Shown here piece after piece: positions 51,735 to 54,288 of a stretch of DNA of 64,000 nt. This stretch comes from Candidatus Bathyarchaeota archaeon (GTDB taxonomy: Archaea; Thermoproteota; Bathyarchaeia; 40CM-2-53-6; RBG-13-38-9). The translations under genes and the position numbers were made by a program. Position 1 is the stretch's first letter, and each line of letters opens with the position of its first letter. Location: positions 224,001 to 288,000 of the forward strand of contig CAWECG010000001.1 of NCBI GenBank assembly GCA_963807605.1, read 5' to 3'. The notes under the pieces are model-generated. The model made no database searches and was not told where the DNA came from. It saw only the letters and a program-made list of their open reading frames with translations.

Positions 51735-52136
51735 CTACCAATAACGTTGAGGTGGAACGGAGAGACCGTAACATTGTGGACAGAACACCATGTTGAAGTA
51801 ATGTCTTCCACAGGCCTTACAGATCGAACGATTGCATCGACTGCATATGTACATAGCGGGAAGCTCACGATGGTAGCTGCAGGTACCCATAGAAGGAATC
51901 CTCATTGAGATAGCCCTTGCTTGAGGCATGGAAGGAGTTTGTTGAATCTGAGGGATACCCGTAGGTGAAATTACCCTAATTGCGGGGGCTGGCTTAGGCG
52001 CCGGTTGGACGGATACGGTTGGCGCTCCCACGGAGGCCATTGGAACGGTTGGAGGAGGATACATAGAACTTGCGCAGTTGTAACAGAACTTGGCTCTCTT
52101 TGGGTTAGCCTTGCCGCACTTTGGGCATGTTGGCAT
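51735..52136 (-). CDS. Zinc ribbon + B-box-like zinc finger protein, last gene of the Ubl operon
   Basis: CPKCG..AKFCYNC; Pro-rich linker; CSYHRELPAMYICSRCNRSICKAC...FCPQC. Confidence 0.85.
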   Translation of the reverse strand: MPTCPKCGKANPKRAKFCYNCASSMYPPPTVPMASVGAPTVSVQPAPKPAPAIRVISPTGIPQIQQTPSMPQARAISMRIPSMGTCSYHRELPAMYICSRCNRSICKACGRHYFNMVFCPQCYGLSVPPQRYW

Positions 52137-52147
52137 TTAATCCTCCC

Positions 52148-53389
52148 CTAGGTTAATCGGACAACAACTTCATTATATTCGCCGTCCTTTCTTTTAAGAG
52201 TAACTAGCAGATACTCTCCTCGCTTCAAGTCGCCTTTTCCCAGCGAATCTTCAAGGACTCTCGTTACAGGTTCCCGCGACAGATTAAACAACATGAAATC
52301 CTCAGCGTCCGGAAATAGCCTTTTTGAGATCTCGCTATGCGTCGATGAAATGAGTTCGTTGATGGGGACTTCAATTCTCCTAACTGTATCCTTTGCTTCC
52401 CCGTGTTCTCCGCAGACAAAGCAGTATTTGTTTTTTGCCAATTCGAGTATGGAGTACTTGTTGTATTTGAGGTCTGCAATCCAAATGCCTTCTAATGGTC
52501 TTCCAGCAGTCTCTGGCCATTCGCCGTCCTTCAGGTAAGCGGGATAGCCGAGAAGTATTTTGACAGCCTCCTGACTTTGGATTGATGCAACCAGAGATAT
52601 TGTCGTAGGAAGAGATGGAATTACAATCTCTTCAAGTGGTGCGTCGCAGGGGTTTCTCAGGCCAACTAATCTGCCGTACTGGTTGCCCGCTACGGGGCAC
52701 ATTGGGCATGGATCATCAGGAGGTATGTATGATTGAACTCTGCAGTGATACCCGGAAATCCCACCATCGACCATCGGTACAAGGTATCTGCGCGATGTCA
52801 AGGTCAAAGATACTCTGGAGGCAAAATTATCAAGGCCACTTATGATAAGGTCTGAATTCAAGAAGACTTCCAAGGGAAGTCTCTCAAGTCTACCCTCCAC
52901 CGCAGTGATCTCGAGGTGTGGATACTTGCGATGTAGCTTTTCAGCCAAAACCTTTGATTTGGGTTTCCCGAAGTCCGTCTTATCGAAAAAGAGCATCCGA
53001 CTCAGATTCGACACTTCAACTGTGTCATAGTCGACTATGGTGAAATGCCTGACTCCCACCATGGCCAAGTTCTTTACGGTCTCATTGCCTAGCGCACCGG
53101 CGCCAGCGATCAAGACCTTGGAGTCCCTCAACCTAGCCTGGCCTTGCTCACCCCACAGGATCATCTGGCGTGACCAGAAGTAATCGATCTCCAGCTTCTT
53201 TGATTCCAGTTGCAGCTTGTAGAGTTTGGAGGTCTCCCTTAGAGGTTTTCCGTCTAGGAGTAGTCTTGTCAGATCCGGTTCAAGACTGAGCTTGGCACAT
53301 ATTGTTTGCTTGAGCCTAGCCACAGTTGCCTTTGGTGGGATGTCGACCTCAACATCCCTAACTGATGGGATCCCTGCTAAAACCTTCAA
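52148..53389 (-). CDS. E1-like ubiquitin-activating enzyme with N-terminal ubiquitin-like domain
   Basis: Ubl-like first ~70 aa; WSRQ, GAGALG, DYDTVEVSNLSR, GLDN, CPMC, putative catalytic Cys in NPCD, CFVC. Confidence 0.9.
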   Translation of the reverse strand: MKVLAGIPSVRDVEVDIPPKATVARLKQTICAKLSLEPDLTRLLLDGKPLRETSKLYKLQLESKKLEIDYFWSRQMILWGEQGQARLRDSKVLIAGAGALGNETVKNLAMVGVRHFTIVDYDTVEVSNLSRMLFFDKTDFGKPKSKVLAEKLHRKYPHLEITAVEGRLERLPLEVFLNSDLIISGLDNFASRVSLTLTSRRYLVPMVDGGISGYHCRVQSYIPPDDPCPMCPVAGNQYGRLVGLRNPCDAPLEEIVIPSLPTTISLVASIQSQEAVKILLGYPAYLKDGEWPETAGRPLEGIWIADLKYNKYSILELAKNKYCFVCGEHGEAKDTVRRIEVPINELISSTHSEISKRLFPDAEDFMLFNLSREPVTRVLEDSLGKGDLKRGEYLLVTLKRKDGEYNEVVVRLT

Positions 53390-53407
53390 AACGTGTCCTT
53401 CAGAATG

Positions 53408-53992
53408 TCAAGGCCTATAGGGCCTTAGGATTGTGAATCTCACTACGTCCCTCTGGGGCGGCTGTCTGGCTGCGAGAGCAGGAACCGCTATTACGTTGAA
53501 TCTGACGGTGTCTGTTTCAGAGGCCTTCTTACGTGGTTTGTTCATCTTTGGGAAACCGAATTCGCCGCAGACCTTAGCTGCTTGCAAGCATTTTGGATAG
53601 TTGAAGACGTTGTCTGGATTTGGGTCCGAGAGGAGATAGTATAGTGAGTTTACAATGGAGACGAGTTTGAGGTTTGGCTTCCAGCTATCACCTAAGGTGG
53701 ATACGCAGACCGCGCCTGGAATATTTGGTACTATGTTTGGATGTGCTATCTCCGTTAGCCAAGTGACTATTGGAGGTTTGACGGGATAGTCGTCCTGCAG
53801 TTCCAACCTGAACCGTTGCCATTCGACGTATTCCGTGAAGGGCCATATCTTCTGTTCGGCCAGCCTCTTGACCTCGCCCTTCTCGCACCTGAGCATGCCT
53901 TCATAACTTGTTGGAGGATCGTTAAGCACTCTGACTGTTGGGAATTGGTGATTTAGAAAATCCTTTTCTTTGTAGAGTTGAGGTATGTTCAA
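53408..53992 (-). CDS. Ubiquitin-conjugating enzyme E2 (UBC fold)
   Basis: DYPVKPP, HPNI, GAVCVSTL (catalytic Cys), WKP, LLSDPNPD. Confidence 0.93.
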   Translation of the reverse strand: MNIPQLYKEKDFLNHQFPTVRVLNDPPTSYEGMLRCEKGEVKRLAEQKIWPFTEYVEWQRFRLELQDDYPVKPPIVTWLTEIAHPNIVPNIPGAVCVSTLGDSWKPNLKLVSIVNSLYYLLSDPNPDNVFNYPKCLQAAKVCGEFGFPKMNKPRKKASETDTVRFNVIAVPALAARQPPQRDVVRFTILRPYRP

Positions 53993-53995
53993 TGC

Positions 53996-54238
53996 TTAAC
54001 CGCCAATAATGTTGTATGGCATCAGAGCCAGCTGGGCGTTCTCGGGAATTCCAGCGGCGGCGACTGATATGCTGTCGTCAAGCATGACTCCACCGTACAT
54101 CAATGAGACTGTTGTCTGGTCGATCCCGAATGAGCTGCAGACCTGTTGTTTAATCTCACTTATTGTATGTTCTGGAAGTACGTCGATCTCGGCAAGCCCG
54201 GACTGTGGTCCAATCGGCGCTTGAATAAATAACTTCAT
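53996..54238 (-). CDS. Ubiquitin-like protein ending in di-glycine (ATG 54238 preferred over GTG 54247)
   Basis: MKLFIQ...IDVLPEHTISEIKQQV...LMYGGVMLDD..SV...GI.ENAQLAL...IIGG; GGAGGTGA SD 9 nt upstream. Confidence 0.9.
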   Translation of the reverse strand: MKLFIQAPIGPQSGLAEIDVLPEHTISEIKQQVCSSFGIDQTTVSLMYGGVMLDDSISVAAAGIPENAQLALMPYNIIGG

Positions 54239-54247
54239 AGAAGACAC

Positions 54248-54288
54248 TCACCTCCAGACTGAGTTTCGGGCATGAACATAAATCTTGT
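54248..54288 (-). promoter_or_regulatory. Putative BRE/TATA and SD of the Ubl operon
   Basis: Minus strand ACAAGA-TTTATG at about 54288-54277; GGAGGTGA at 54255-54248. Confidence 0.5.

Follow-up and report, generated by a model that had tools for sequence, protein, structure and literature searches.

We analyzed a window of 64,000 nt (the whole stretch of DNA considered here) from Candidatus Bathyarchaeota archaeon, corresponding to positions 224,001-288,000 of the forward strand of CAWECG010000001.1 (assembly GCA_963807605.1). The host belongs to the class Bathyarchaeia and its habitat is soil or sediment. A first-pass annotation had described region 51735-54288 as a unit of four minus-strand genes (Ubl, E2, E1 and a zinc-finger gene) separated by gaps of 3, 18 and 11 bp. 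The same spacing was obtained from ORF coordinates, but the unit itself proved to be larger: six genes were counted, with ZnFTM and IgTM co-directional upstream of Ubl in positions that are kept in relatives. The features were located as follows (window coordinates, with the evidence for each).

55546-56535, minus strand: ZnFTM, a membrane B-box protein (Pfam, B-box profile, hydrophobicity scan, synteny)
54297-55382, minus strand: IgTM, a single-pass membrane protein (Pfam, identity to a protein of related locus L023, hydrophobicity scan)
53996-54238, minus strand: Ubl, an 80-aa ubiquitin-like modifier (PF00240, 32.9 bits; ends in GG)
53408-53992, minus strand: E2, a UBC-fold conjugating enzyme of 194 aa (PF00179, 63.4 bits)
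52148-53389, minus strand: E1, a ThiF-type protein of 413 aa (PF00899, 172 bits)
51735-52136, minus strand: ZnF, a soluble protein of 133 aa with a zinc ribbon and a B-box-type finger (Pfam, alignment, synteny)
37840-38328, plus strand: a stand-alone Rpn11-like JAMM protease (PF01398, 35.6 bits)

We consider it probable (about 0.7) that region 51735-54288 represents the 3' two-thirds of a six-gene operon, in the order ZnFTM, IgTM, Ubl, E2, E1 and ZnF, for a Bathyarchaeia-type ubiquitylation. A separate TATA element had been proposed before Ubl; only a weak TATA-like motif, ATTTATG, occurs upstream of this gene. The stretch upstream of 56535, where ZnFTM starts, is more AT-rich and promoter-like.

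The Ubl ORF spans 53996-54247, and its preferred start is the ATG at 54238, with GGAGGTGA located 8 nt upstream. As had been proposed, the product is a beta-grasp protein with a terminal GG directly before the stop codon. The sequence is near-invariant across relatives, and GG forms the C-terminus in 30 of 58 orthologues, the others extending 1-10 residues past it. The next gene indeed codes for a UBC E2 with an HPN motif and a catalytic Cys, as H84, P85, N86 and C96 are invariant (17 sequences). Its best matches among solved structures were UBC12, Rad6 and UbcH5, the loops used for E3 binding are canonical (YP[VL]KPP and W-x-P are invariant in the E2 alignment), and the C-terminal tail has two conserved D-x-V-R-F strands. 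In a genome search, this E2 was the only UQ_con match.

The predicted adenylation motifs, Zn site and Cys of E1 were also found and are invariant across relatives; these are the GAGAxGxE loop, R131, D187, the Zn site C228/C231 and C323/C326, and N246-P247-C248. An N-terminal Ubl domain (residues 1-70, PF00240, 31.8 bits) precedes the adenylation core (73-330), which is the size of MoeB and holds the tetra-Cys Zn site, and a ubiquitin-fold domain (UFD, 337-413) forms the C-terminus. Canonical E1s carry their catalytic Cys in an inserted domain that is absent here, so that Cys248, the probable catalytic Cys, lies in a short crossover loop. E1 scored 97.9 bits for UBA1 vs 81.2 bits for MoeB. Its AF2 model (pLDDT 86.6) matched MoeB, ThiF and UBA3 with VIA Z of about 29-30, and alignments of the model to UBA1, UBA3 and SAE2 extended through the UFD to residue 413.

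The fourth gene had been annotated as a double zinc-finger protein. Two fingers are present, but they are more precisely a RanBP2-type ribbon and a B-box-type binuclear finger, and a membrane paralogue, ZnFTM, is located upstream. The N-terminal ribbon (C4, C7, N11, C18 and C21) has RanBP2/NZF spacing and is followed by a Pro-rich linker. Pfam detected a zinc ribbon (PF12773/PF13240) and zf-B_box at 22.8 bits (cut-off 24.1). The ligands of the B-box finger (C86, H89, C98, C101, C106, C109, C119 and C122) are invariant in 28 orthologues, 27 of which matched PF00643 at E<=0.01 (best 5.3e-7). In the AF2 model this domain had a pLDDT of 75-87, and fold searches (Foldseek/VIA) returned weak matches to cross-brace fingers with Z of 2-3.4, the best being FYVE, Rab-effector, ZZ and LIM fingers. 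A B-box profile found nothing significant among solved-structure sequences (E 0.68 for PML B-box1) and no detectable similarity to the Aigarchaeota RING protein srfp (hhalign probability 3%); searched against the whole genome, it scored significantly for ZnF and ZnFTM only. ZnFTM (94 bits with this profile; zinc ribbon and weak B-box in Pfam) has an N-terminal zinc ribbon, a B-box-like finger whose sixth ligand is Asp, a PMG-rich repeat linker and, by hydrophobicity scan, about four TM helices in residues 207-329. The statement that the operon has no RING is literally correct, the gene after E1 being of B-box type, although its eight-ligand finger probably belongs to the RING-like fold class. 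The zf-RING_2 profile had no match in this genome, and likewise none in any control genome, so that this negative says nothing about RING proteins elsewhere in the genome. A complex prediction for E2 (residues 1-160), the B-box domain (76-133) and two Zn gave a score of 0.00, which weighs neither way. ZnF is the best candidate for an E3, or it might be an adaptor.

The cytoplasmic tail of IgTM (30 aa) is rich in Pro and Arg; a TM segment (residues 24-56, hydrophobicity scan) connects it to an Ig-like ectodomain (DUF5980) with seven N-glycosylation sequons. Over residues 198-527 of the JAMM-fused L023 protein, IgTM shows 33% identity (E 6e-59), and it is the orthologue, without JAMM, of the JAMM-TM-Ig protein that relatives encode. 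Of 40 relatives whose flank reaches far enough, 34 have a JAMM domain at the start of the gene directly before Ubl; in the host, no JAMM was found within 51735-56535. The absence of a co-operonic JAMM reported at first pass is thus true for the host's family (f1) but not for most relatives; this family lost the domain secondarily, and its absence is not a feature of the system. As had been proposed, a eukaryotic-type Ubl-E1-E2 set of the kind used for trans-thiolation is present, and the gene content departs from the Caldiarchaeum model. Loss of JAMM in cis could mean an altered function in the host.

The stand-alone JAMM is encoded 15.7 kb from the operon in the same window and has an intact motif (E...HSH-x7-S-xx-D). 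Its best match among solved structures was the 26S proteasome regulatory subunit N11-like protein (6fjv, 55.6 bits), whose aligned sequence recurs in an Rpn11-like ORF of a Caldiarchaeum-like locus (L111), and it is 42% identical to an operon-fused JAMM. We ruled out that it is a split-off operon domain: many genomes have both forms, and 29 stand-alone JAMMs from seven families formed a clade of their own (SH-aLRT 99 in a quick tree with midpoint root). It belongs to an old paralogue clade and is a candidate trans-acting deconjugase after loss of the operon JAMM.

Synteny was surveyed in 58 related Bathyarchaeia loci, with denominators that vary with the available flank. The four originally annotated genes co-occur in relatives: Ubl precedes E2 in 57/57, E1 follows E2 in 48/48 and a B-box gene follows E1 in 43/48. 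Where the flank sufficed, a membrane gene occupies the IgTM position in all 40 relatives and a B-box-TM gene the ZnFTM position in 39 of them; at least one B-box gene was present at every locus with full flanks. The operon is single-copy, has a fixed place and is missing from only one of the order's sampled families. Identity of E2 among relatives is 57-82%, and scores with the E2 profile were bimodal (about 300 bits or more in the Bathyarchaeia type vs <=67 in 63 Caldarchaeales genomes); this E2 family is nearly confined to one Bathyarchaeia order. More distant members were detected in Thermoprotei and Thermoplasmata MAGs. In distant operons (Thermoprotei MAG; GCA_002497815.1), the E2 family is again found beside zinc-ribbon/B-box and JAMM genes. 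The Thermoplasmata relatives have Ubl-E2-E1-JAMM and a TM zinc-ribbon protein and lack a B-box, and the downstream ZnF is absent at 5/48 Bathyarchaeia loci. Therefore, the cascade may run without a B-box.

These data suggest how the system might work. Ubl would be translated in its mature form, GG being its last residues. E1 would adenylate Gly80 and then hold Ubl as a thioester on Cys248, and its C-terminal UFD would recruit E2, allowing Ubl to move onto Cys96. Ubl would then be joined to target lysines, with the two B-box proteins possibly assisting as E3-like adaptors. As one of these is soluble and the other membrane-anchored, part of the tagging may take place at the cytoplasmic face of the membrane. 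In most relatives, the Ig-like membrane protein would remove the tag through its fused JAMM domain, and in the host's family the stand-alone Rpn11-like JAMM would be the likely substitute.

It is possible, although on our estimate doubtful, that the B-box proteins, one of them membrane-embedded, serve as the actual ligases of an archaeal ubiquitin system directed at proteins of the membrane or envelope. We regard as unlikely the alternative that the cascade is real and these proteins are not E3s but receptors of substrate or Ubl, or partners of the membrane JAMM, with E2 conjugating without a ligase. The Thermoplasmata relatives and the five loci lacking ZnF would fit such a role, as would the lack of similarity between the B-box and srfp. 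Prokaryotic B-box domains were also reportedly tied to membrane-associated peptidases, in 2011, by Burroughs, Iyer and Aravind. However, the B-box genes are kept in the host's family despite loss of JAMM in cis and, therefore, are not mere JAMM partners, and E2 retains its canonical E3-binding loops. A receptor function is also suggested by superposition of the N-terminal finger of ZnF on NZF fingers (0.6-1.3 A over 26-27 residues), but the T-F dipeptide with which NZF binds ubiquitin is G-K or G-S in ZnF.

Two further alternatives concern the purpose of Ubl itself. An anti-virus defence of the bacterial Bil or CBASS-Cap2 kind, in which Ubl is conjugated to viral proteins, would be consistent with the combination of Ubl, E2 and E1 (plus JAB in relatives), which parallels BilABCD, and with a 64-bit match of PADLOC E1-E2 models to the E1 core. 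We consider it very improbable, given that the PADLOC matches span only the generic Rossmann core, that E2, Ubl and ZnF had no match, and that a single-copy operon with a fixed place, a near-invariant Ubl, housekeeping genes on its flanks and uniform composition is unlike patchy defence islands. Even less probable, and close to negligible, is that Ubl serves solely as a thiocarboxylate sulfur carrier of the MoaD, ThiS or SAMP kind and is not conjugated to proteins. Ubl does share the terminal GG with sulfur carriers, and MoeB and ThiF can be superposed on the core of E1 (Z about 30), but the Pfam matches of Ubl were to the ubiquitin, Rad23 and TUG families and not to ThiS or MoaD, translational linkage (gaps of 3 and 18 bp) ties in a UBC E2 whose HPN and Cys are invariant, E1 carries a UFD but lacks a rhodanese domain, and the ancestral operon includes JAMM. 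In addition, the genome has a second, housekeeping ThiF of the MoeB/UbaA type elsewhere (241 bits), and thus the operon E1 is not needed for sulfur transfer.

To our knowledge, eukaryote-like archaeal ubiquitylation has been tested only in the E1/E2/RING system of Caldiarchaeum. In the literature searched, we found no description of a Bathyarchaeia Ubl-E2-E1-B-box operon. The only mention found in print concerns single-cell genomes related to MCG, for which a "ubiquitin protein modifier system" is noted in passing (Saw et al. 2015, PMC4571567), and "Bathy" was absent from the searchable text and supplement of Hennell James 2017 (PMC5654768). The Bathyarchaeia operon represents a novel form of the Caldiarchaeum/Asgard type. 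This lineage would offer a second, independent design, with a B-box for the RING and with a membrane-anchored protease and adaptor proteins, and its E1 is minimal in that the UFD is kept, no Cys domain is inserted and an N-terminal Ubl is added. If the B-box proteins are the ligases of a membrane-directed system, this would place an origin of RING-like-class E3 function, and of membrane-linked ubiquitylation (ERAD- or ESCRT-like sorting), in non-Asgard archaea and make it independent of the RING finger as such. The proteins are small, soluble and non-thermophilic, making it testable which E1 and E3 features trans-thiolation needs and whether B-box domains suffice as ligases by themselves. The JAMM-less operon of the host is a natural experiment on deconjugation supplied in trans.

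Compared with known systems, the operon shares a Ubl, E2, E1 and JAB set with Bil (BilABCD) and CBASS Cap2/Cap3 (PMC10557695), but its E2 matches eukaryotic UQ_con directly, PADLOC recognized neither E2 nor Ubl, and it is vertically conserved and housekeeping-like rather than a mobile defence island. The SAMP/UbaA and Urm1 systems of Haloferax and Sulfolobus likewise combine a beta-grasp GG modifier with a Zn-binding, MoeB-like E1 core and with a JAMM deconjugase, whereas they lack the E2 and the E1 UFD, both of which are present here, and the host has a separate UbaA/MoeB-type gene. The B-box of eukaryotic TRIM/RBCC proteins (PF00643) is a RING-like binuclear treble clef (PMC4506424). The eight Zn ligands of ZnF begin as in B-box type 2 (C-x2-H-x8-C-x2-C-x4-C-x2-C), but a 9-residue spacer then leads to a last pair of the form C-x2-C, where the known domain has H-x2-4-H. 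The structural match is weak (Z about 3), and the partner is a RanBP2-type ribbon or TM helices and not a RING or coiled coil.

The closest counterpart is the operon of Candidatus Caldiarchaeum subterraneum and other Caldarchaeales, with rpn11 and ub-e2-e1-srfp (Nunoura 2011, PMC3082918), whose system was reconstituted by Hennell James 2017 (PMC5654768). Both are compact archaeal operons encoding Ubl, a UBC E2 and a ThiF E1 with a C-terminal UFD, with an associated Rpn11-type JAMM and a small zinc-finger gene after E1. Relative to Caldiarchaeum-like loci (L111 and L112), the E2 core is 42% identical over 73 aa and E1 26%, and Ubl is 31% identical to Aigarchaeota ubiquitin. Of the components of the Caldiarchaeum/Asgard type, Ubl-GG, E2 and E1 with UFD were found in the host operon, and the srfp RING-H2 and an adjacent Rpn11-like JAMM were not. 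Instead of RING-H2, a zinc ribbon and B-box follow E1, together with a second, membrane-anchored B-box protein, and the JAMM of Bathyarchaeia relatives, lost in the host, is fused to a TM/Ig-like protein. The Caldiarchaeum E1 has an insert of roughly 75 residues after the first CxxC that is absent here, whereas the Bathyarchaeia E1 gains an N-terminal Ubl domain, and, unlike its Caldiarchaeum counterpart, the host Ubl needs no processing.

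The genes for a ubiquitin-like modifier (Ubl), an E2, an E1 and a soluble B-box protein (ZnF) form part of a six-gene unit. The first-pass annotation had described a four-gene operon; the same four open reading frames were recovered with the same gaps (3, 18 and 11 bp), and the synteny survey supported their co-occurrence, but two upstream membrane-protein genes, ZnFTM and IgTM, belong to the unit as well.

55546-56535, minus strand: ZnFTM, zinc ribbon, B-box with Asp as sixth ligand, PMG-rich linker, ~4 TM helices
54297-55382, minus strand: IgTM, one TM helix, Ig-like ectodomain, seven N-glycosylation sequons
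53996-54247, minus strand: Ubl, table-11 ORF
53408-53992, minus strand: E2, table-11 ORF
52148-53389, minus strand: E1, table-11 ORF
51735-52136, minus strand: ZnF, table-11 ORF

The Ubl is assigned 80 aa, the length given previously, because a Shine-Dalgarno sequence (GGAGGTGA) lies 8 nt upstream of the ATG at 54238 and overlaps the alternative GTG start. The sequence is richest in AT, and promoter-like, upstream of 56535. The Pro/Met/Gly linker of ZnFTM is encoded by a 42-bp tandem repeat (55969-56139, 4.1 copies, 95% matches), whose copy number may vary among strains. Directly 3' of the operon, on the same strand, is a methyl-transfer gene pair (URO-D/MtaA-like methyltransferase and B12-binding corrinoid protein, 49347-51222).

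Scanning the E2 alignment against one genome per species yielded 58 loci, nearly all in Bathyarchaeia MAGs, and mapping of the window proteins onto them revealed a single fixed order: membrane B-box protein, membrane protein, Ubl, E2, E1, soluble B-box protein. When only loci with sufficient flank were counted, Ubl preceded E2 in 57/57 and E1 followed E2 in 48/48; a B-box gene came after E1 in 43 of 48, a membrane gene before Ubl in all 40, and a B-box-TM gene before that membrane gene in 39 of 40. Four of the 58 loci (L030, L045, L054, L057) are Bathyarchaeia-type operons whose MAGs bear the labels Methylomirabilota, Acidoferrum, Acidiferrales and Nitrospiraceae; these are probably mis-binned archaeal contigs.

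E2 homologues carry Bathyarchaeia protein annotations. Of 301 Bathyarchaeia genomes with a completeness of 80% or more, 54 had the E2, 53 of them in the window's own order and one in another; within that order it was found in every sampled family except one, and there was no match either in two genera of a further family in the same sample. E2 scores across 401 Thermoproteota genomes were bimodal, with 7 Bathyarchaeia-type matches at 297-363 bits and 63 genomes from four other families, apparently Caldarchaeales, at no more than 67 bits. An exhaustive E2 profile search gave only 17 representatives above 1e-30, beyond which the matches fell off steeply. Distant members included a Thermoprotei MAG (Ub-E2 fusion, E1 with N-terminal Ubl, B-box-TM protein and, 592 aa long, a membrane protein with JAMM, a domain of the deconjugating-protease type), GCA_002497815.1 (JAB, Ubl, E2, E1, B-box protein and B-box-TM protein) and Thermoplasmata MAGs (Ubl, E2, minimal E1, TM zinc-ribbon protein and JAMM). 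The association of this E2 family with B-box and membrane JAMM genes thus predates the Bathyarchaeia order. In-frame fusions of Ubl to the E2 N-terminus were seen in a Thermoprotei MAG (L099:7001-7867, Ubl part ending LIGG) and another metagenome contig (L101:7001-7726); modifier release would need cleavage after GG.

Pfam searches agreed with the earlier assignments of Ubl (ubiquitin family, 32.9 bits), E2 (UQ_con, 63.4 bits) and E1 (ThiF, 172 bits, with an additional N-terminal ubiquitin domain at 31.8 bits). The genome (2.65 Mb, 94% complete) contains a single UQ_con match. The annotated HPN motif and catalytic Cys of E2 (H84-P85-N86, C96) were invariant in 17 sequences, as were the YPxKPP and W-x-P loops. 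Past the UBC core, the E2 tail (residues ~152-194; 53408-53540) has two conserved D-x-[VI]-[RK]-F-x-[IV] strands with invariant F165 and F186, to which one of the three Ubl-fold domains might dock. The adenylation motifs, Zn-site Cys pairs and additional Cys previously recognized in E1 were likewise invariant in 22 sequences (GAGAxGxE nucleotide loop, D120, R131, K144, D187-N188; C228/C231 and C323/C326; N246-P247-C248). An AF2 model of E1 (pLDDT 86.6) showed a beta-grasp domain (residues 1-70), a MoeB/ThiF-like core (VIA Z 29.9 and 29.6, rmsd ~2 A), a disordered crossover loop around C248 and a C-terminal domain (337-413). Since structural alignments with UBA3, SAE2, UBA1, UBA6 and UBA7 extend to residue 413, the model places a ubiquitin-fold domain (UFD) here. 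By sequence, E1 resembles UBA1 (97.9 bits) more than MoeB (81.2). The modifier and the N-terminal Ubl domain of E1 are paralogues (25% identity, E 2e-7), with an invariant Cys in both at the matching place in the helix.

The fourth gene was correctly described as encoding two zinc fingers, whose identity can now be refined. In 28 orthologues, the N-terminal finger has RanBP2 spacing (C-x2-C-x3-N-x6-C-x2-C) and the C-terminal finger eight invariant ligands (C-x2-H-x8-C-x2-C-x4-C-x2-C-x9-C-x2-C). Pfam gave a zinc ribbon and zf-B_box (22.8 bits vs a cut-off of 24.1), and 27/28 orthologues matched PF00643 at E<=0.01 (best 5.3e-7). A profile of the C-terminal finger had exactly two significant places genome-wide, both in the operon. 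Fold searches with a ZnF model gave FYVE, ZZ and LIM fingers as best matches at weak Z ~3, and NZF/RanBP2 fingers superposed on the N-terminal ribbon. Double ribbons of the same kind occur in several other window proteins (including 48050-48670 and 39161-40144), of which one has a linker of PPII repeats and another is a fusion with an SPFH/Band-7 domain; thus, the N-terminal ribbon of ZnF is a common module in the genome.

B-box domains are RING-like binuclear treble clefs, with reported E4 activity (PMC4506424). From position, fold class and co-conservation we infer an E3 role for the B-box proteins; that they are instead receptors or peptidase partners is the serious rival. Direct comparison detected no similarity of the B-box finger to the Aigarchaeota small RING finger protein (srfp). 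It is unlikely that the Ubl is only a sulfur carrier, as both an E2 and a UFD are present and a separate ThiF gene (241 bits) is located elsewhere in the genome. A defence island is similarly unlikely: PADLOC matched just the generic E1 core, and the operon is single-copy and vertically inherited, with a near-invariant Ubl, housekeeping neighbours and uniform composition.

The reported absence of a co-operonic JAMM holds for this operon and its closest relatives but not for the type: in 34/40 relatives, the gene just 5' of Ubl opens with a eukaryote-type JAB domain (PF01398, 44-62 bits), after which come a TM segment plus Ig-like domains, or DUF998. The match of IgTM to one such protein covers residues 198-527 of the latter (33% identity, E 6e-59), and a 30-residue Pro/Arg-rich tail stands where relatives have the JAMM, a loss shared with the closest relatives L009, L010, L012 and L016. 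In three other close relatives (L013-L015), no gene lies between the membrane B-box gene and Ubl, and the Ubl ends in GG-CF, so that a protease in trans is needed. Overall, 28/58 orthologous Ubls have 1-10 residues after GG and hence need processing; the window Ubl needs none.

A stand-alone JAMM is also encoded in the window:

37840-38328: stand-alone JAMM, 162 aa, Glu and HSH-x7-S-xx-D motif intact

Its best solved match was a 26S proteasome regulatory subunit N11-like protein (6fjv, 55.6 bits), the aligned sequence of which recurs in the Rpn11-like ORF of a Caldiarchaeum-like locus (L111). JAMMs fused in the operon share 42% identity with it. A recent split from the operon was considered and rejected, because both forms (~150 and ~510-560 aa) coexist in many genomes of the order and, in a quick tree, a single clade (SH-aLRT 99) unites 29 stand-alone JAMMs of seven families and separates them from the fused forms. 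It is thus an old paralogue, and a plausible candidate for deconjugation in trans. Its gene shares 20 bp with the end of a YfbR-like 5'-deoxynucleotidase gene of the HD-domain type (37260-38328 together), suggesting co-transcription. Elsewhere in this genome, beyond the window, a 440-aa frame (G000:C3:413300-414481) encodes a Prok-JAB-ThiF (JAB-E1) fusion separate from the operon.

In the literature searched, we found no published description of this operon beyond a paper that briefly notes a ubiquitin modifier system in single-cell genomes related to MCG (PMC4571567). The reconstituted model of archaeal ubiquitylation is that of Caldiarchaeum (PMC5654768), and loci from the four low-scoring families (including L111, L112 and L113 from G334, G327 and G397) show its classical rpn11 / ub-e2-e1-srfp arrangement. 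Compared with these loci, the window proteins are 42% (E2 core, over 73 residues), 31% (Ubl) and 26% (E1) identical, and the Caldiarchaeum E1 has a ~75-residue insert that the window E1 lacks.
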